From UHGV virus genome UHGV-0209657: a DNA stretch of 55,055 bases. One strand, written 5' to 3'. Every line of letters begins with the position of its first letter. Positions within the stretch are counted from its first letter, which is position 1. Positions 4,179-52,451 of the stretch are shown piece after piece. The DNA comes from a virus. A program made the translations under genes and the position numbers. Below the pieces are notes generated by a model. That model saw nothing but the letters and a program-made list of their open reading frames with translations, searched no databases and was not told the DNA's origin.

Positions 4179-4469
4179 TTAATGGTAGCGGACTTTATCC
4201 AGGGGTTTTTCCCCTAAATGGCGTGGTTGCGTTGCGTGGTAGTAGCTGCCGCTTTCATTTTCCGTATACCATTTTACTGATCCTTTGCGACGTTCTTTAA
4301 TGCTATTTGGTTTGCATCTTTCCTCGTTTGCAAATCGAATAGCTTTATCCACATTGTCTGTTTTATTGATTGCAGGTGATGATTTTCTTTCGTTTTCTCT
4401 TTTTATTTTTCTGCGTTCCCTGGCATTCAGTTTACTGTCACATTTGCCATACATGATTGTAACGCTCAT
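4179..4469 (-). CDS. basic protein with N-terminal arginine-rich motif, possible N-like antiterminator
   Basis: First gene after candidate leftward promoter; NARERRKIKRENERK resembles an ARM; GGAG RBS before ATG. Confidence 0.3.
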   Translation of the reverse strand: MSVTIMYGKCDSKLNARERRKIKRENERKSSPAINKTDNVDKAIRFANEERCKPNSIKERRKGSVKWYTENESGSYYHATQPRHLGEKPLDKVRYH

Positions 4470-4807
4470 AATCTGATCTCCGTATATCCTTGATGATACT
4501 TAATAAAAAATCATCTTCGTTAATTGCCGCACTTCCAGCGGCTGACCAGATTGTTAATGAGCGGCTTAACATCTTTCAACTAATCCCGCAATCATCGCCG
4601 TTCCCGGCGTGACCTTGCTCACTCCAAGCAAGCTGACTCGTCGCCTTGCGTGCGGTTTCGTGGGGGATGTAACGCTTTAAACACCCCATGCGCCTTGTTA
4701 TCAGTGCCGCTTTCGGTCCCCCATCGGGGAGTTACTCCACGGTTGACAAGGTGTTAAGCCTGATTTTTAAAGTGCCAGGAAGTTGCTTTTGTTACCTGCG
4801 ACCTTCC

Positions 4808-4836
4808 TTTGACTCGCAATATACGCCCCGTAAAAC
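4808..4836 (-). promoter_or_regulatory. candidate leftward early promoter (TTGACT - 17 nt - TATATT)
   Basis: Read on minus strand: -35 at 4831-4836, -10 at 4808-4813, between cI and the leftward operon. Confidence 0.4.
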
Positions 4837-4935
4837 ATCGAGTCAATCCATTTTGTATACTTTTTTAAAATATTTTATATGCTATTGATATTTAAACAAT
4901 AAATAACGTTTTCTGTTTACGTTTTGGCGTTTTCC

Positions 4936-4969: not shown

Positions 4970-5617
4970 TTATGGCAGGTTTACGATCTTCGCATCAACC
5001 ACCACGCCTATAATTTTTGATTCTGGATTCATAGGGATTGGCGGATACAGCGGATTGAGCGAACGTAAAAGCCTTTGACCTCCATCAATAATCAACTGTT
5101 TAAACGTCGGTATCTGCCCTTCCTCAAGCTGGGCTATAACCAGTTTGCCGTCAATAGCTGGCGCGTGCGGGTCAACAAGTATCATCGTCCCCGCCGGGAT
5201 GCTCAACCCCTGCGGCGCGTTCATTGATTCACCTTTGGCAACCAGCCAGTAACTATCATCTGAACAAATAACGCTAGTCGTAACGTGTGGTAATGCTGAT
5301 CGCCTTGTGTCATCCATATTGTTTACTGTGTCCTTCCAGTCAATAACCGGGTAACTACCTAAATCACGCGGCGGTGCGGCCTGAAGTGTATTAGAAACAG
5401 AATCATCAATGACCATACCATCATGTGTAACAGTGAACTGCCGACGACCAAGCGCCCGCATAATCCGCGCAATATCTTCAAGATTTGGCTCGCGGCGACC
5501 GTTCAGCCAGTGTGACAGGCCGCCTTTAGTTATCCCCATGAGATCTGCGAGTGAATCCTGACTCATGCCCTGCGCCCGCATGAGCTGCTTTGCTAAGTCA
5601 TACCATTTTGTTTTCAT
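4970..5617 (-). CDS. cI: CI-like repressor (HTH plus S24 LexA-type autopeptidase domain)
   Basis: N-terminal HTH, C-terminal GESM Ser motif and downstream Lys; divergent from rightward operon. Confidence 0.85.
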   Translation of the reverse strand: MKTKWYDLAKQLMRAQGMSQDSLADLMGITKGGLSHWLNGRREPNLEDIARIMRALGRRQFTVTHDGMVIDDSVSNTLQAAPPRDLGSYPVIDWKDTVNNMDDTRRSALPHVTTSVICSDDSYWLVAKGESMNAPQGLSIPAGTMILVDPHAPAIDGKLVIAQLEEGQIPTFKQLIIDGGQRLLRSLNPLYPPIPMNPESKIIGVVVDAKIVNLP

Positions 5618-5741: not shown

Positions 5742-5922
5742 GAAAAAGATAACTGAAGGCACAAAAAGGCACTTACCTTATGCTCTTTAAAAATCCGGTG
5801 TCGCTGCGAAGCGAAAAACAAATATCACGCAACGGCGGGATCTGTTGAGCGGTCAGTCACTGCTATCTAATGCTAATGGGATGCCCGCCCGCGCGTTCAC
5901 TCTAACCATAGGAGAAAATGCG

Positions 5923-24913: not shown

Positions 24914-25042
24914 TTTCTCACCTTGTCATTCTGTGATCTGCGTCACGCTAAATCATACCAAAATGGATTGATCGCGGTTTTTACAATATGTATATTTTAC
25001 TCAAACGGAAGCATAGTTAACAAAATGGCGCGGAGGTGCGTT

Positions 25043-25231
25043 ATGACTGAAAAGCTATGGAAGTTGACGGTATTCATGACAGACGGTAGGGAAAAGGTTA
25101 TCGCCCTGTATGACGACGAGGGTGAAGCATTGGTTGACGCGCTTTTACTTGCTGAGGATGACCGCCTTTTGGGATACCAGATCGAACCTGTCAAATATGA
25201 GGCTAACAAAAATGAAAAAATACAGTCTTGA
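25043..25231 (+). CDS. hypothetical protein (62 aa), moron cassette gene 1
   Basis: GGAGG RBS; opposite strand to flanking tail genes. Confidence 0.35.
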   Translation: MTEKLWKLTVFMTDGREKVIALYDDEGEALVDALLLAEDDRLLGYQIEPVKYEANKNEKIQS

Positions 25232-25559
25232 TGTGTGGTTAAGTGGTAGCAAGGAGTGTTTCGGATTATTTGATAGCGAAGAAGTAGCCCTGGAAGAAGG
25301 CAGGATTCTTGAATGTAGTTTAGGCCATCCAGTGAAATATGCTGCTAATCCGGTACAGATAGTTGATGAGGTGGAAGATATGAACCCGAAAGATATTAAT
25401 GGTAGCTTCACTGCTTATTATGCAGATTCTATGGACCAGTCTTGCCCTGGTGAAATACACGCAAAAGGTTTCCCGGCTGACGATCCAGAAGCAAAACGCG
25501 AATACGAAAAAGCGGCGAAAGATTTCTGTATCGATAACCTTTCAGCATTCGATAAATAA
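25212..25559 (+). CDS. hypothetical protein (115 aa), moron cassette gene 2
   Basis: ATG overlapping upstream gene end. Confidence 0.35.
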   Translation: MKKYSLDVWLSGSKECFGLFDSEEVALEEGRILECSLGHPVKYAANPVQIVDEVEDMNPKDINGSFTAYYADSMDQSCPGEIHAKGFPADDPEAKREYEKAAKDFCIDNLSAFDK

Positions 25560-25568
25560 GGCGGCAAC

Positions 25569-25817
25569 ATGGGGCGGCGCAATCACGGTGATTATGTGTA
25601 CACGTTGAAACAGGCCGCCCGCCTCATCGGTTATCATGAACACGAATTTATTGATTTGCTGATTGAGCGCGGGATACTGTACCAGGTCTGTTTAACGCTG
25701 TACCCGAAAGCGAAATACCTACATGAAAAGTTATTCATCATCATGACGGATGAAAACCAGGTTAACCATTCATTCGTCACTGATAAGGGCGTTAATTATC
25801 TGCGTGATAACTTATAG
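25569..25817 (+). CDS. hypothetical protein (82 aa), possible HTH, moron cassette gene 3
   Basis: Segment YTLKQAARLIGYHEHEFIDLLIERGIL looks HTH-like. Confidence 0.35.
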   Translation: MGRRNHGDYVYTLKQAARLIGYHEHEFIDLLIERGILYQVCLTLYPKAKYLHEKLFIIMTDENQVNHSFVTDKGVNYLRDNL

Positions 25818-25940: not shown

Positions 25941-25975
25941 ATAAAAATAACCCCGCTTCGCGCGGGGTCGTGTTT
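25941..25975. terminator. hairpin terminator between moron cassette and tail gene M
   Basis: CCCCGC-ttcgc-GCGGGG preceded by A-run. Confidence 0.45.
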
Positions 25976-26171
25976 ATACGCCATCAACCAAAAATAAAAC
26001 CTCCTTCCCTTCCCGGGATCTACACCCAACGTACCCATCACCAACGTCGTGAAGATACCATATATCGCCGTTGTCAGCTTTTACAGTAAGGTCGTTGATC
26101 TCATAGTCGTCAAACAATGTAAAAGCGTAAGTTTTGTCAACTACACAAGTCCCGTACATAACAACCCCCAT
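25974..26171 (-). CDS. hypothetical protein (65 aa) downstream of M
   Basis: ATG overlaps M stop; same strand as tail genes. Confidence 0.35.
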   Translation of the reverse strand: MGVVMYGTCVVDKTYAFTLFDDYEINDLTVKADNGDIWYLHDVGDGYVGCRSREGKEVLFLVDGV

Positions 26172-26524
26172 TAGCCAACAACTTGCTCAAACGTTGCGTT
26201 TAGCGTGTACAAAGGCCCGTCTTTAGTCATGCTCCATTGCCGACAGACAAAAAGCCTTTGCACGTTATCCATTGACGGCGACCAGTAAAAAGCCTCGACC
26301 GCGCCGCGCGCCCTCAAGAATGCTTCCGCCTGGATTGCTACGTTTCCACCATCACCACATCCGGCGCTACTGCCTTTAAACACCAGGGTGTAGCTATCAA
26401 GCAATGGATTGATACCTTTTACCTGTCTTTGCTCATAACCATCGCCCAGCTTAACAACAGATACGTCTGGCTTCCTGGTCACGCTGTAGCTTCTTTGCGG
26501 CGTCCATCTGAACACTTCCGGCAT
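26171..26524 (-). CDS. M: minor tail protein M
   Basis: 117 aa, position between H and L. Confidence 0.75.
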   Translation of the reverse strand: MPEVFRWTPQRSYSVTRKPDVSVVKLGDGYEQRQVKGINPLLDSYTLVFKGSSAGCGDGGNVAIQAEAFLRARGAVEAFYWSPSMDNVQRLFVCRQWSMTKDGPLYTLNATFEQVVG

Positions 26525-26622
26525 AAAACCCCCACAAGTTACATTTTGTATATATCTTTACGCGCTTCTACGCGAAAAATAAGATCATTGTCACAATGAT
26601 TATAGCTAGTTTACAAAATGGA

Positions 26623-26651
26623 TTCACATAGCACGCAACAAGATGTATATA
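26623..26651 (+). promoter_or_regulatory. candidate sigma70 promoter for moron cassette (TTCACA - 17 nt - TATATA)
   Basis: Hexamers with 17-nt spacer about 40 nt upstream of AAGGAGG RBS. Confidence 0.3.
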
Positions 26652-26691
26652 GAAAGCAAGAAGAAAGTAGTACCAACGAAGGAGGCCCAAA

Positions 26692-26847
26692 ATGAAACGC
26701 TATGTAGTAGTAATGCTAAATAACGCATTCGAACAAGTGGAAATAGCAATCGTTAAGGGTTTCGACGACGCATTCAAATACGGTCAATTCATGATGAATG
26801 CGAAAGAAGATGAATACCGGGACTTCTTCCTGAAGGCACTTAACTAA
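26692..26847 (+). CDS. hypothetical protein (51 aa), moron
   Basis: Strong AAGGAGG RBS; opposite strand within tail operon. Confidence 0.35.
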   Translation: MKRYVVVMLNNAFEQVEIAIVKGFDDAFKYGQFMMNAKEDEYRDFFLKALN

Positions 26848-26864
26848 GGATGATGGGGTGAGTT

Positions 26865-27119
26865 ATGAAACTGGTAGCGATTGACAGAAATCTGAAAGCA
26901 CAGAAAAACGCACAGGACCGGATCATCAAGAAAGGTAAGGAATTACTTAAAGCCTTTCTGAGAAAAGAAGTTTACCCCAAAAAGTTACGCGACGGTTACG
27001 GATACAAAATGGATATCAATCTTGATTGGAGGCTGTTTAGCGAAGATTTGAAGGTTTGGTTAATTGTTGAGCACCATGCCTATAACAAGTTATGTGGCGT
27101 GAAAGGCACTCATAAGTGA
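26865..27119 (+). CDS. hypothetical basic protein (84 aa), moron
   Basis: GGGTGAG RBS; followed by terminator. Confidence 0.35.
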   Translation: MKLVAIDRNLKAQKNAQDRIIKKGKELLKAFLRKEVYPKKLRDGYGYKMDINLDWRLFSEDLKVWLIVEHHAYNKLCGVKGTHK

Positions 27120-27174
27120 GTCGAGATATTCGAAAGGGGATATATCGCGCGGAATGGTCGTTTATAAATACGAA

Positions 27175-27212
27175 AAATAACCCCGGCATTGCACCGGGGT
27201 TTAGTTTATTTG
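27175..27212. terminator. bidirectional hairpin terminator
   Basis: CCCCGG-cattgca-CCGGGG flanked by A-rich and T-rich runs. Confidence 0.55.
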
Positions 27213-29548
27213 CGGCGAGGTTGCAACATTCCGCCTGGTCTTTGAGATTCCCTTGTTATCATTTTCATGGCTACACGTTCCATTGTTAATTCAAGTCTGC
27301 GGCTGTCTTCGTCGCTGAATCCGTTCGTGGTCTGAATGCTGATACTGACAGGCATACTAATACCGCCACCGCCGCCAATATCACGGCCCGGAATAACTCT
27401 GCCGTTCTCGCCAGGGATCATATATTGATTGCCGTTAGATGTCTGGAATAGCTCCGGCCTGTTGTGTTCCCCTACGCGGTACATATTACCACCAATGACG
27501 CTACCACCATTAAAGCGACCGCCGCCGAAAATTGACGTAGCCAGCGACATGATCGCAGTGAGCGCCGCCGAACCAGCCGCCGCCCAGCTACCGCCAGTTG
27601 ACGCCGCAGTTGCCGCCGCTGCTGGGGCCGCCGCCGCAGCAATGCTTCCCTGAGCTGCTACCGCGCTTGCTGTTGTACTTGTTTGCGTGGCCTTGCTTTG
27701 TGTCTCCATCATGATCTGATCTGCTATCCAGTTTGCAGCTATGTCTGAGAGTCTGTTACCGATATTGCCGAGTATATTGCTTCCTAAGTTAGCAAAAACA
27801 TCACTCAATGATTGAGTGCCGTTTAACAGGCCAACAAGTGCATTGCTCATACCACCTTTAAGGCCATTAACGCAATCACCGATAAGGCTGTTTGTGTCGC
27901 TTTGCGCCTGCCATTGCTCCCACTTCAGATCGCGGATCTGTTGCTCATAGGCTAACAGTTCCTGTTTCTGTTGCGCTTCCGTCACGCCCAGGTCGATAAG
28001 CATTTGCTTACGGACGGCCCATTCATTTTGAACCTGCTGAATAGGGTCTACTTCGCCCTTTAGCTGATCCATCGGGCTTACTATTTGCTCCCATTTGTCG
28101 CGCAATTCCTCTACCGGAATTTGTGCTAATTCTTCCTTTAGTTCCTTACCTATCCCTTTTTGCGCGGCGCGGTACTCAAGGAGAGTGATTTTACCCTGGG
28201 CGAATGCAGCATCAATGGCCTTGCCGCTCTCTAACGCTTTGCGCATAGCGGCGGCGTCTTTGTTGTACTGGTCAGAAACGCTTATACCTTTATCGCCAAG
28301 ACGATCAGCTTCAGATTTCTTCTCTTTTTTCTGTTTTTTCGGTTTGTCTACTGGCTTGTCGAATCCGGTAATCGCTCCGTCATTGGCGGCATTCTGTTCA
28401 TTTTTCCTTGCTTCTTCTGTAGCCTGGATTGCTGCGGTCAGATCATCCTGTAGTTGCATGACCTTGCCAACGGTCTTACCGTATTTCTTCTCGTAGTTGC
28501 TGTTATATTCGTCGGTTTGCTCTCCTACGACCTCCTTCATCCATTTGTAGGCATCCATTAGTGCCTTGATTGGCGTCACCATTGCGATGATCTTCTCGGC
28601 TACCTCGCCAGCCTTGATTCTGACATCTTCAAACATGTCGATGAATTCGCCACCAGCCGTCTTCAGGGTGTTAAAGCAGGTTTTAGCGAAATCAGCGCCT
28701 TCACCTAAAGCCTTAACACCTTTCGTTACAAGATCGATACCAGCAACAACCGTATCGGATACACCGAAAAGATCATCCAATTGCTCAATAAGTCCCATAA
28801 CCTCGACTTTAAGCTCATTCAGGGCCATGCCGGATGTGCGCGGCAACTGCGCAAACTTCTCGTTTGTTTCCTGCGTAGCCGCCTGGATTGCGTTAACCAT
28901 CCTTTCTGCCGTGATCTTACCGTCCAGCATTTCGGCGCGGAATTGGCCCATTGATAACCCCATCTGGCGTGCCATTGTCTGTACGATGGTCGGGGTGTTT
29001 TCTAACAGGCTGTTGAATTCTTCAGCACGCAACACGCCACCGTCGATAGACTGACGGAATTGACGCATTGAGTTTGACATCTGCTCCGCTGACGCGCCGC
29101 CCAACGCCCCCATTTTCTGAATCGTACCTACCAGGTTAAGCAATTGCCCTTCAGTGGCGGACGTGTTCTTCAGTGAGATAGCTAAGCCTTGCCACAGATC
29201 CCCGGTATCCTTCATGCTTTGGCCTGTTTCTTTTGATATTGCTTTCAGGCCATCAAAAACCCGTCCGGCGGACTCCGCATCGCCCGTAAGCATTTTGATT
29301 TTTACGCGAAGCATTTTTGCTTGCTCCGCCATATCCATAAATTGACGCACGGCCTCCGCAGCAATTAGCAAATGGATAACCCTGGTCAGTGCCTTGATGG
29401 ATGTTTTCAGGGTGTTTACCTGGCGGTCAGCCTGTTTTGCGCCGCGCTCTATACGCCCAAAGGCCTGGTCTGCCTGTCGTTGTGCAACGAGAAGTTGACC
29501 AGTTTTCGCATCAACTTCGTAATAAATTGTACCTACACTGGTAGCCAT
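27206..29548 (-). CDS. H: tail tape measure protein
   Basis: 780 aa, coiled-coil/Ala-Gly-rich, upstream of M-L-K-I-J. Confidence 0.85.
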   Translation of the reverse strand: MATSVGTIYYEVDAKTGQLLVAQRQADQAFGRIERGAKQADRQVNTLKTSIKALTRVIHLLIAAEAVRQFMDMAEQAKMLRVKIKMLTGDAESAGRVFDGLKAISKETGQSMKDTGDLWQGLAISLKNTSATEGQLLNLVGTIQKMGALGGASAEQMSNSMRQFRQSIDGGVLRAEEFNSLLENTPTIVQTMARQMGLSMGQFRAEMLDGKITAERMVNAIQAATQETNEKFAQLPRTSGMALNELKVEVMGLIEQLDDLFGVSDTVVAGIDLVTKGVKALGEGADFAKTCFNTLKTAGGEFIDMFEDVRIKAGEVAEKIIAMVTPIKALMDAYKWMKEVVGEQTDEYNSNYEKKYGKTVGKVMQLQDDLTAAIQATEEARKNEQNAANDGAITGFDKPVDKPKKQKKEKKSEADRLGDKGISVSDQYNKDAAAMRKALESGKAIDAAFAQGKITLLEYRAAQKGIGKELKEELAQIPVEELRDKWEQIVSPMDQLKGEVDPIQQVQNEWAVRKQMLIDLGVTEAQQKQELLAYEQQIRDLKWEQWQAQSDTNSLIGDCVNGLKGGMSNALVGLLNGTQSLSDVFANLGSNILGNIGNRLSDIAANWIADQIMMETQSKATQTSTTASAVAAQGSIAAAAAPAAAATAASTGGSWAAAGSAALTAIMSLATSIFGGGRFNGGSVIGGNMYRVGEHNRPELFQTSNGNQYMIPGENGRVIPGRDIGGGGGISMPVSISIQTTNGFSDEDSRRLELTMERVAMKMITRESQRPGGMLQPRRK

Positions 29549-29602
29549 GATTTAACCTCATGCAAAAATGTGATCTGTGTATCTATTTTATACAAAATGG
29601 CT

Positions 29603-29631
29603 TTACTTCAACGACTCCATTTTGTATAAAG
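29603..29631 (+). promoter_or_regulatory. candidate sigma70 promoter for lipoprotein moron (TTTACT - 17 nt - TATAAA)
   Basis: Hexamers with 17-nt spacer; inverted repeat TACAAAATGG/CCATTTTGTA overlaps; CRP-like half-site at 29569. Confidence 0.4.
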
Positions 29632-29675: not shown

Positions 29676-30335
29676 ATGAAACGGTTAGCAAAAGTGGCAA
29701 TGATTGCGGCGGTATTGGGTCTGGTTGGTTGCAATGAGGATAATGAAAAAGCGCCTATAGTGACCACTCAAGAACAACAAGCATTAGCAGAGAAAAATGC
29801 TAAATGGCTTGCAGAACAACAAGCAAAACAAGCCGCATATGAGGCACAGTTAGCAAAAGAAAAAGCTGGTAAACAGTGGCTTGTGGTCGAAAGAAAAGAT
29901 GATATGCAGGACACAAAAAACGTGTTCCTTTTCGTGAAAGCAGAACATTTCAGCGGAAGTCTTGATGCTTTCCCTACACTGAAAGCACGGGATGAAAACA
30001 AACCTGTATTAACAATCGCTTGCCAGGGTAATAAAACAAAAATGTTCGTAGCATGGTCAAACCATGTAACTGACGCTGGGGACACTACTTATATTAACTA
30101 CCGGATCGGCGATCACAAAGCTGTAGCTACTGAATGGAGTCGGTCAACTAACTATAAAGCTCTTGGATTATGGAACGGCAAAAAAGCCATTCCAATGATT
30201 AAAAAACTGGTTAACGAAAAACAATTTATCATTGAAGTAGTGCCGGAAGCTGGCGACATTGAGAAAGCAGTGTTTAACATTGATGGTCTTTATAACCACA
30301 TCGACAAAGTGAAAAACGCTTGCAACTGGAATTAA
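29676..30335 (+). CDS. lipoprotein (signal peptide plus lipobox LVGC)
   Basis: MKRLAKVAMIAAVLGLVGC N-terminus; opposite strand between tape measure and tail chaperone region. Confidence 0.6.
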   Translation: MKRLAKVAMIAAVLGLVGCNEDNEKAPIVTTQEQQALAEKNAKWLAEQQAKQAAYEAQLAKEKAGKQWLVVERKDDMQDTKNVFLFVKAEHFSGSLDAFPTLKARDENKPVLTIACQGNKTKMFVAWSNHVTDAGDTTYINYRIGDHKAVATEWSRSTNYKALGLWNGKKAIPMIKKLVNEKQFIIEVVPEAGDIEKAVFNIDGLYNHIDKVKNACNWN

Positions 30336-30344
30336 GGGTGAAAC

Positions 30345-30665
30345 ATGAAACGCGATGAATGGATGAGAAAATGGGAACATAAACAAGTAGCATATAATCG
30401 CAAGATGAACCGCGAATTTGACTTCGGTGTCGCAGAGCGTGATTGTGGGTATAAAGGAAATCTAAATGGTGCATATGTTCAACATGTTGGCGATAAACAG
30501 TATTATTACATTGTCAACTTCAACCATGTATTGCACGCAGATCTGGTTGTTATTGATGGGAAAACAAAAATAGTAGCGAATAAACGCATTAATAAGAACG
30601 CAGCAATCAATATATTAACAGTGATTCGCACCCAGATGAATGTGCTTTACAAAAAAATAGCATAA
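30345..30665 (+). CDS. hypothetical protein (106 aa), co-transcribed with lipoprotein
   Basis: 9 nt downstream of lipoprotein gene; followed by terminator. Confidence 0.4.
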   Translation: MKRDEWMRKWEHKQVAYNRKMNREFDFGVAERDCGYKGNLNGAYVQHVGDKQYYYIVNFNHVLHADLVVIDGKTKIVANKRINKNAAINILTVIRTQMNVLYKKIA

Positions 30666-38785: not shown

Positions 38786-38933
38786 AATGTTTACTCCTGA
38801 ATACATGTTTACGCGTTGCTACGCGAAAAATAGAAAAACTTGCGGGGGATTGTGGGACAGATTTTATGTAGCCAATTGAGAATTATTCTTGTTCATCTTC
38901 GAAAATTTTTCGAAGTTGATAATAATCAATAAC

Positions 38934-52368: not shown

Positions 52369-52429
52369 AGTATACAAAATGGATACACCAGAACAAGGTG
52401 AATAGCGCCATTATGTGATCCACATCACG
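52369..52429 (-). promoter_or_regulatory. candidate promoter with CRP-like site upstream of nin genes
   Basis: -10 TATACT (52369-52374), -35 TTGTTC (52391-52396), TGTGA-N6-TCACg at 52414-52429, within nested inverted repeats. Confidence 0.35.
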
Positions 52430-52451
52430 CAATGGCGCCATTTTGTAAATT

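Follow-up and report, generated by a model that had tools for sequence, protein, structure and literature searches.

Between two minus-strand tail genes of the virus genome UHGV-0209657 (55,055 nucleotides, the whole of this stretch being termed the window here) there is a cassette of two small plus-strand genes which, judged from its sequence, is apparently a genuine but ordinary moron-type accessory operon that includes the gene for an uncharacterised phage protein with a predicted RelE fold. The products, p51 and p84, have 51 and 84 amino acids, their genes lie between those for the tape-measure protein (H) and minor tail protein M, and the pair has its own conserved promoter and its own hairpin terminator. 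The mildly unusual feature is that the toxin-fold gene, that for p84, survives in some relatives without its neighbour. A two-gene moron on the opposite strand had been proposed at this site in an earlier sequence-only reading, and the proposal holds with the qualification that the two-gene head of the cassette is a fixed rather than a sporadic constituent. The features of the cassette, from its promoter onward, are as follows.

26610 to 26621, plus strand: upstream promoter module TTTACAAAATGG, 12 nt, at about -48 to -37, adjoining the -35; nearly invariant in 46 relatives
26623 to 26628, plus strand: -35 hexamer TTCACA; TTCAC invariant in the 46 relatives
26644 to 26651, plus strand: -10 region TG-TATATA (hexamer at 26646-26651); TGTATA invariant in the 46 relatives
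26680 to 26685, plus strand: Shine-Dalgarno sequence AGGAGG of the p51 gene, 6 nt ahead of the ATG
26692 to 26847, plus strand: ATG open reading frame for p51, a 51-amino-acid acidic protein; homologue of gp68 of phage mEp021; phrog_29810
26855 to 26861, plus strand: Shine-Dalgarno-like GGGGTGA of the p84 gene, 3 nt ahead of the ATG
26865 to 27119, plus strand: ATG open reading frame for p84, an 84-amino-acid basic protein with a predicted RelE/ParE fold; homologue of mEp021 gp67; PF24732 ParE_like; phrog_1525
27179 to 27201, both strands: GC-rich hairpin with an A-run on one flank and a T-run on the other, a two-way intrinsic terminator for both the cassette transcript (plus strand) and the tape-measure transcript (minus strand)

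The two frames, 17 nt apart, are where the sequence-only reading had put them, and the ribosome binding sites that it called strong can be read ahead of both start codons. Its description of both proteins as basic is right for p84 (pI 9.87) and wrong for p51, which is acidic (pI 5.14). Conservation was followed through a comparison set of 59 related loci, including L001-L003, L010-L012 and 46 contigs from IMG/VR. The p84 gene is present in 54 of the 54 related loci examined and the p51 gene in 51, with both intact in 49; the two-gene head is fixed in this phage group. Computed over hundreds of allele pairs by the Nei-Gojobori method (NG86), the median ratio of nonsynonymous to synonymous substitution rates (dN/dS) is 0.042 for p51 (25 distinct alleles), 0.069 for p84 (36 alleles) and 0.070 for tail gene M, and since the values for the two frames are as low as that for M, both are selected coding sequences. 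The conservation on which the proposal of a cassette depended is present in this form, as purifying selection on both frames together with the ubiquity of p84. The Shine-Dalgarno sequence of p51 is mostly GGAGG or GGGGG in relatives, with a few cases of GTGAGG (46 distinct sequences). That the frames arose by chance in an AT-rich spacer might have been entertained for sequences so short and lacking a characterised homologue, but dN/dS values of 0.04-0.07, conserved ribosome binding sites, a Pfam match above its cut-off and a confident fold for p84 have already refuted it. (The counterparts in mEp021, gp68 and gp67, are both annotated as hypothetical.)

The predicted TTCACA-17-TATATA promoter is present. 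When 46 distinct intergenic sequences from relatives are aligned, the two hexamer cores are unchanged and the promoter-distal part of the spacer varies, differing throughout in L027 and L030, two loci that lack p51; counted by hand, the spacer is 17 nt in the window and in both of these. Invariant hexamers with a variable spacer thus give comparative support for a real promoter, one missed by a simple promoter scanner because the scanner demands T at position 6 of the -10, where there is an A. At the other end, the hairpin at 27179-27201 was scored as terminator-like on both strands, with folding energies of -16.3 kcal/mol on the minus strand and -13.8 (centroid) to -15.3 kcal/mol on the plus strand, as expected of the bidirectional terminator that had been proposed; the same junction in relatives bears annotated terminators. 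Of the sequence-level hallmarks of a moron, insertion between two genes, a private promoter and a private terminator are all found. Sporadic presence is not, because the head is fixed in the group.

The cassette promoter appears not to stand alone, being from its sequence one of four putative sigma-70-type promoters that share the arrangement CAAAATGG-N-(-35)-17-(-10). The composite CAAAATGG-N-TT-N21-TATAWW has exactly four matches in the window, where none is expected, at 4818-4855 (minus strand), 24959-24996, 26614-26651 (that of the cassette) and 29593-29630, and the architecture of module plus promoter recurs at equivalent sites in relatives. The three sister promoters are these.

4818 to 4859, minus strand: TATACAAAATGG-A-TTGACT-17-TATATT, upstream of an N-like antiterminator gene; a match to the composite motif
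24955 to 24996, plus strand: ATACCAAAATGG-A-TTGATC-17-TATATT, serving an island between L and M; conserved in relatives
29589 to 29630, plus strand: TATACAAAATGG-C-TTTACT-17-TATAAA, serving a lipoprotein island upstream of the tape-measure gene; conserved in L001, L002, L003 and L010

Within the module the 9-mer TACAAAATG is itself over-represented, with 12 copies in the window against 0.81 expected (4170, 4849, 5692, 9961, 26542, 26612, 27003, 29591, 29618, 37592, 52373 and 52439), and has the extended consensus T(T/A)TACAAAATGGA. Four copies adjoin the -35 of promoters that share one geometry. Some of the rest are arranged as inverted pairs (29589-29628; 52371-52449), and still others are 20-28 nt ahead of start codons, those of M and of a small open reading frame after the N-like gene. 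As regards identity, a nut site was considered for the TACAAAATGG motif and rejected, the boxA/boxB-like sequences of the window being elsewhere (~4540-4570 and 5781-5815) and bearing no resemblance to it. The motif has no dyad symmetry and for that reason was not confirmed as a CI operator, and comparison by eye with the consensus sequences for Fis, IHF, CRP, LexA and DnaA gave poor matches only. The TACAAAATGG module may be either an UP-like element or the site of a regulator. A candidate operator of another kind, the palindrome ATCATTG-TCA-CAATGAT (7-3-7, 26584-26600), was discarded as it is not conserved in the 46 relatives. A 40-amino-acid hydrophobic open reading frame on the minus strand (26568-26690) overlaps the cassette promoter and has an equivalent annotated as CDS0032 in phage MagusPhagus; a gene-caller artefact is probable.

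The identity of p84 is where most of the biological interest resides. It matches the Pfam family PF24732 (ParE_like) at 45.3 bits, the cut-off being 24.4, as well as phrog_1525, and the name given to it in RefSeq by the Prokaryotic Genome Annotation Pipeline (PGAP) is 'ParE family toxin-like protein'. PF24732 is narrow, an exhaustive search of 1.84 billion representatives by hidden Markov model (HMM) yielding 10 proteins at E <= 1e-3; of these, the five full-length, distant ones that were scanned all match it. Structure prediction, which the sequence-only reading had put forward as a check, gave a confident model with a RelE/ParE fold that the reading itself had overlooked. This is the AlphaFold2 (AF2) model made with 22 diverse sequences, down to 26% identity, for which the predicted local distance difference test score (pLDDT) is 86.9 and the predicted template modelling score (pTM) 0.74; one made with a shallow alignment of close relatives, with pLDDT 52, was discarded. 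The predicted fold is of the compact alpha/beta kind seen in solved toxins, its antiparallel sheet packing against an N-terminal helix. The only solved structures matched by the model are toxins of the RelE/ParE superfamily, at modest scores: 5.5 for HigB1, 5.3 each for YafQ, HigB and RelE, 5.2 for YoeB (23% identity) and 4.0-4.4 for ParE structures. With Foldseek, the match to YoeB has a probability of 0.97, an E value of 0.07 and a template modelling (TM) score of 0.49, and the matches in BFVD are to jumbo-phage proteins with a 'ParE-like toxin domain', at TM 0.71-0.85. Across the family alignment (22 sequences, down to 26% identity) K40, L41, R56 and H70 are invariant, and K23, G44 and N74 nearly so. 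The case that p84 is a toxin-like protein of RelE/ParE fold, and a member of PF24732, is modest but consistent, the fold being that of a predicted model.

That p84 might be a true ParE-type toxin, poisoning DNA gyrase, is what both its Pfam family name and its RefSeq name would lead one to suppose. The family name is, however, founded on predicted fold and not on assay, in both structure searches every ParE scores below the RNase-type members, and an invariant Lys/Arg/His pattern is typical of RelE-type RNases, not of ParE, with the consequence that gyrase poisoning is considered decidedly improbable.

Other collections added little. Neither p84 nor p51 is matched in NCBIfam or, at E <= 0.1, by the defence models of PADLOC-DB 2.0, and Rfam gave nothing at its gathering threshold, with chance-level matches only at E < 1. 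For p51 there is no Pfam match either, and the sole family match is phrog_29810, of unknown function; its best sequence match in the Protein Data Bank (PDB), to CagT, is insignificant (E 0.04 over 18 residues). Homologues of p51 were found only within the mEp021-like lineage, all at 76% identity or more. Literature searches found no experimental study of PF24732 and no paper discussing gp67, gp68 or PF24732. All PF24732 members examined are of phage or prophage origin or from phage-like contigs, the exception being one on a plasmid-like contig (L006) with an adjacent ParA gene. In jumbo phages (phAPEC6, K64-1, Muenster, GAP32 and others) the more distant members of the family belong to long runs of small genes on one strand, and in other phages they are found within early operons; what lies upstream of them is unrelated from case to case (38-, 69- and 116-118-amino-acid proteins, a ParB-like protein). 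A tblastn search with p51 against the six contig loci L004-L009 gave no match. In jumbo-phage-like contigs (L004, L005 3257-3853; L008, L009 2248-2529) the gene for a 198- or a 93-amino-acid protein follows the PF24732 gene by 4-9 nt or overlaps it by 4 nt, and the upstream neighbour there is a conserved 116-118-amino-acid protein of unknown family; the 198-amino-acid protein has a sub-threshold match to protein kinases.

A gene for a toxin-fold protein directly behind one for a smaller protein brings to mind a classic type II toxin-antitoxin pair, in which p51 would be a labile antitoxin neutralising p84, and the pair would serve to stabilise the prophage, or bring on abortive infection once p51 is depleted. 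The layout is indeed canonical for that class, two small adjacent co-directional genes, one of them toxin-fold, with one promoter, one terminator and 17 nt between them, and both are intact in most of the related loci. There is also the precedent of PaaA2-ParE2, where the antitoxin is small and without a DNA-binding domain, and PDB entry 5cw7, from that system, is among the fold matches of p84. Moreover, truncated p84 accompanies intact p51 in Escherichia coli PAR and in several short clusters. (In public data there are about 12 truncated versions of p84, of 40-61 amino acids and including P0033-P0040, P0042 and P0045, as against about two of p51, an excess beyond what the ratio of lengths would give; a cost of carrying p84 could explain it, and so could assembly errors.)

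Several other properties expected of a type II pair are lacking. p51 has no match among known antitoxin or DNA-binding families, and the palindrome within the promoter region, which might have passed for an operator, is not conserved. Co-occurrence is not strict: three independent records, L027, L030 and the complete genome of the cultured enterotoxigenic E. coli (ETEC) strain UMNK88, have an intact p84 gene with its own ribosome binding site directly behind the same promoter, p51 being precisely absent. Between L027 and L030 the p84 gene differs at 10 nt and the protein at 2 amino acids, and because so many nucleotide changes give so few amino acid changes, p84 stays under selection without p51. 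Nor do the partners co-vary: pairwise distances in p51 and in p84 correlate at r=0.09 although just 17 nt separates the genes, as against 0.42-0.46 for p51 with either M or the C-terminus of the tape-measure protein. One p51 allele is found with six p84 alleles whose mutual identity goes down to 60%, and where p51 is identical the p84 alleles can be as far apart as 60-67% identity. Elsewhere, no small partner is conserved beside the PF24732 relatives. It is on account of the loci without p51, the selection on p84 in its absence, the lack of co-variation and the distant relatives devoid of p51 that an obligate toxin-antitoxin pair is rated below a self-sufficient p84 effector; the non-conserved palindrome was also counted in lowering it. 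Overall, the classic pair is regarded as unlikely.

What is preferred, tentatively and somewhat short of an even balance, is that the cassette is an accessory operon, a moron, fixed at the junction of tape-measure gene and M in the mEpimmI coliphages, encoding p84 as a weak or conditional effector of RNase type and p51 as a dispensable modulator, with a role in the fitness of prophage or host. Mechanistically, p84 would act as a ribosome-associated mRNA endonuclease or translation inhibitor in the manner of YoeB, YafQ, HigB and RelE, and not as a gyrase poison, with K40, R56, H70 and the nearly invariant N74 as candidate catalytic residues; its activity may be weak or conditional. p51 may be a lineage-specific, dispensable modulator, possibly a neutraliser, without being an obligatory antitoxin. 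The cassette would be transcribed independently of the late operon, and late transcription presumably passes its terminator by antitermination. Because its promoter type is common to the lipoprotein island, putatively of a superinfection-exclusion kind, the cassette probably serves prophage or host fitness, e.g. in competition with other phages, and by analogy with the superinfection-excluding lipoproteins of this phage group the three opposite-strand islands among the tail genes may be fitness or exclusion modules.

A number of points weigh against this explanation. No sequence link from p84 to solved toxins came from PDB searches with the protein and two profiles, and alignment of the family profile with YoeB (2a6q) by hhalign, over 15 columns and with a probability of 0.85%, was not significant. 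The layout, with a small acidic upstream gene, a basic toxin-fold downstream gene and 17 nt between them, together with the 49 of 54 loci that have both genes, still fits a toxin-antitoxin pair, and truncated p84 beside intact p51 (L011 2254-2442 in E. coli PAR, and the short clusters) is to be expected if p84 is costly. The cassette promoter may or may not be active in lysogens, since its module also precedes the N-like antiterminator gene, where the promoter is presumably an early one in need of silencing by the prophage repressor. In addition, the paper on the mEpimmI phages (PMC11893012) makes no mention of gp67 or gp68.

A bolder extension would have PF24732 as an almost phage-only branch of the RelE/ParE fold that acts without an antitoxin, its members being RNA or translation effectors used for takeover or competition in temperate mEpimmI phages and lytic jumbo phages alike, with a TACAAAATGG regulon co-expressing the N-like operon and the three tail islands. 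This is held to be doubtful.

The intergenic region with the cassette promoter also has signals facing the opposite way, toward M, and both of those pointed out by the sequence-only reading, a consensus TATAAT on the minus strand and an element found also upstream of the portal gene, are real.

26557 to 26581, minus strand: 25-nt element TATTTTTCGCGTAGAAGCGCGTAAA in the leader of M, readable as TACGCG-N4-TACGCG or as a CGCG hairpin; nearly invariant in relatives and folding as a small hairpin
26599 to 26604, minus strand: consensus TATAAT facing gene M; ATTATA invariant in 46 relatives
38808 to 38832, minus strand: the 25-nt element repeated, just ahead of the portal start (38806)

The 25-nt match TATTTTTCGCGTAGNANCGCGTAAA common to the leaders of M and portal has two copies in the window and none in 100 shuffles, and the element may act as a signal in late-operon control. 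In both leaders there is, upstream, a -10-like hexamer after GCTA (GCTATAAT before M and GCTACATAAAAT before portal). The TATAAT, with the strong terminator after the tape-measure gene, raises the question of whether M through J are transcribed by antitermination read-through or from an internal promoter. From these same features it could be argued that the proteins are secondary and that the region is punctuation of the tail operon, a two-way terminator with an internal promoter and leader element for M through J: the TATAAT is invariant, the element is shared with the portal leader, and a strong minus-strand terminator directly follows the tape-measure gene. An acceptable -35 for the TATAAT was, however, sought by inspection and none was recognised, and purifying selection on both frames is as strong as on the tail gene, hence the proteins are selected. 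Since a role in punctuation is compatible with coding function, it is only as the principal reason for the region that punctuation is judged very improbable.

With regard to the phage itself, region 26400-27350 of the window is 81-93% identical to Enterobacteria phage mEp021, five other mEp phages and phage MagusPhagus, and the match to the E. coli M1/5 prophage is 99.9%. The locus is in 33 of 5426 complete E. coli genomes, chromosomal in every case. The mEp021-like phages are the Nus-dependent, non-lambdoid 'mEpimmI' group (PMC11893012). The minus-strand tail genes are in lambda order (tape measure, M, L, K, I, J), and the cassette interrupts the lambda-type succession of H then M. (H and M are adjacent in lambda and HK97.) The flanking genes, and the island whose promoter is of the same family, are the following.

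26171 to 26524, minus strand: minor tail protein M; Pfam Phage_min_tail, 96.9 bits; phrog_14
27206 to 29548, minus strand: tape-measure protein; 780-amino-acid open reading frame, annotated as tape measure in relatives and RefSeq
29676 to 30335, plus strand: lipoprotein island of the window, on the opposite strand inside the tail cluster

Between the p84 stop codon and that of the tape-measure gene there is a slot of variable length. It measures 86 nt in the window, its smallest version, and reaches 1476 nt in mEp021, where several additional small genes occupy it. In relatives this cargo slot (27120-27205 in the window, 4708-6183 in L001, and seen also in L021 and L058) is empty or has up to about 5 additional small genes on the plus strand. 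The cargo includes a recurrent 56-61-amino-acid protein, a 95-amino-acid protein, a 121-amino-acid insertion (L021) and, in mEp021, a zinc-ribbon protein. Directly after M there is a 65-amino-acid open reading frame (25974-26171, minus strand; phrog_3249, of unknown function) that is conserved and annotated in relatives and absent from lambda. The island between L and M (24923-25817, plus strand) ends with the gene for an 82-amino-acid KilAC/antirepressor-like protein. That upstream of the tape-measure gene (29676-30665, plus strand) encodes a lipoprotein (lipobox LVGC; PGAP name TagO) and a 106-amino-acid protein. Further away, the CI-like repressor gene (4970-5617) and the N-like gene (4179-4469) are flanked by boxA/boxB-like nut sequences, GCTCATTAACAA followed by a GCCGC...GCGGC stem at ~4540-4570 (minus strand) and TGCTCTTTAAAAA followed by a stem at 5781-5815 (plus strand), a placement that agrees with that of the nut sites reported for mEp021.

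For current concepts the cassette changes nothing, and the gain is useful, ordinary annotation. Nevertheless, it is nearly universal in mEpimmI prophages, which are common in gut E. coli, and it goes unmentioned both in the paper on this phage group (PMC11893012) and in one on prophage morons. Should p84 prove to be an active RelE-like effector free of an antitoxin, phage toxin-fold proteins would not always be a sign of toxin-antitoxin modules, and p84 would be a first handle on PF24732, a family present in jumbo phages also. The common promoter module would offer a simple explanation for expression of embedded accessory islands independently of the late operon.

Parallels with known systems are several and partial. 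Morons, in the sense of Juhala and Hendrix (Juhala et al. 2000; review PMC3594210; references in PMC10884400), are extra transcription units with their own promoter and terminator between late or tail genes, gp15 of HK97 (beside the tape-measure gene) and bor and lom of lambda being among the examples. The cassette is like the lambdoid morons, which add accessory functions such as superinfection exclusion, in being a unit of that kind placed where related phages have two neighbouring late or tail genes. It differs from them in its opposite strand, its two genes, its group-wide fixed head with a variable cargo slot behind, and a promoter module common to three other promoters of the same phage.

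According to PMC11893012, the Lpp lipoprotein genes of mEpimmI phages lie within the structural gene cluster, and their expression from a plasmid excludes superinfecting phage. The lipoprotein island of the window is, like the cassette, on the opposite strand within the tail cluster, with a promoter of the CAAAATGG-N-(-35)-17-(-10) family; the products of the cassette are different, and the tested function is that of Lpp only. With respect to the RelE-superfamily type II pairs YefM-YoeB, DinJ-YafQ, HigBA and RelBE, p84 has no detectable sequence homology to the toxins and p51 has no match in an antitoxin family, and in the cassette, unlike in those systems, the toxin-fold gene persists without its upstream partner and the two do not co-vary. 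PaaR2-PaaA2-ParE2 (PDB entries 5cw7 and 5czf), from a prophage of E. coli O157:H7, is similar in being a prophage-borne combination of a ParE/RelE-fold toxin with a very small antitoxin, PaaA2, that has no DNA-binding domain.

Closest in family are the PF24732 proteins of the jumbo phages RaK2, K64-1, Muenster, phAPEC6, fHe-Yen9-04 and GAP32, with the same predicted fold and the same invariant K, R and H as p84. They are only 26-33% identical to it, and their genes are in long arrays of small same-strand genes, many of them 8-17 kb from one end of the annotated record. None of them has been characterised, and no p51 homologue and no private promoter-terminator pair is present where their neighbours were read.

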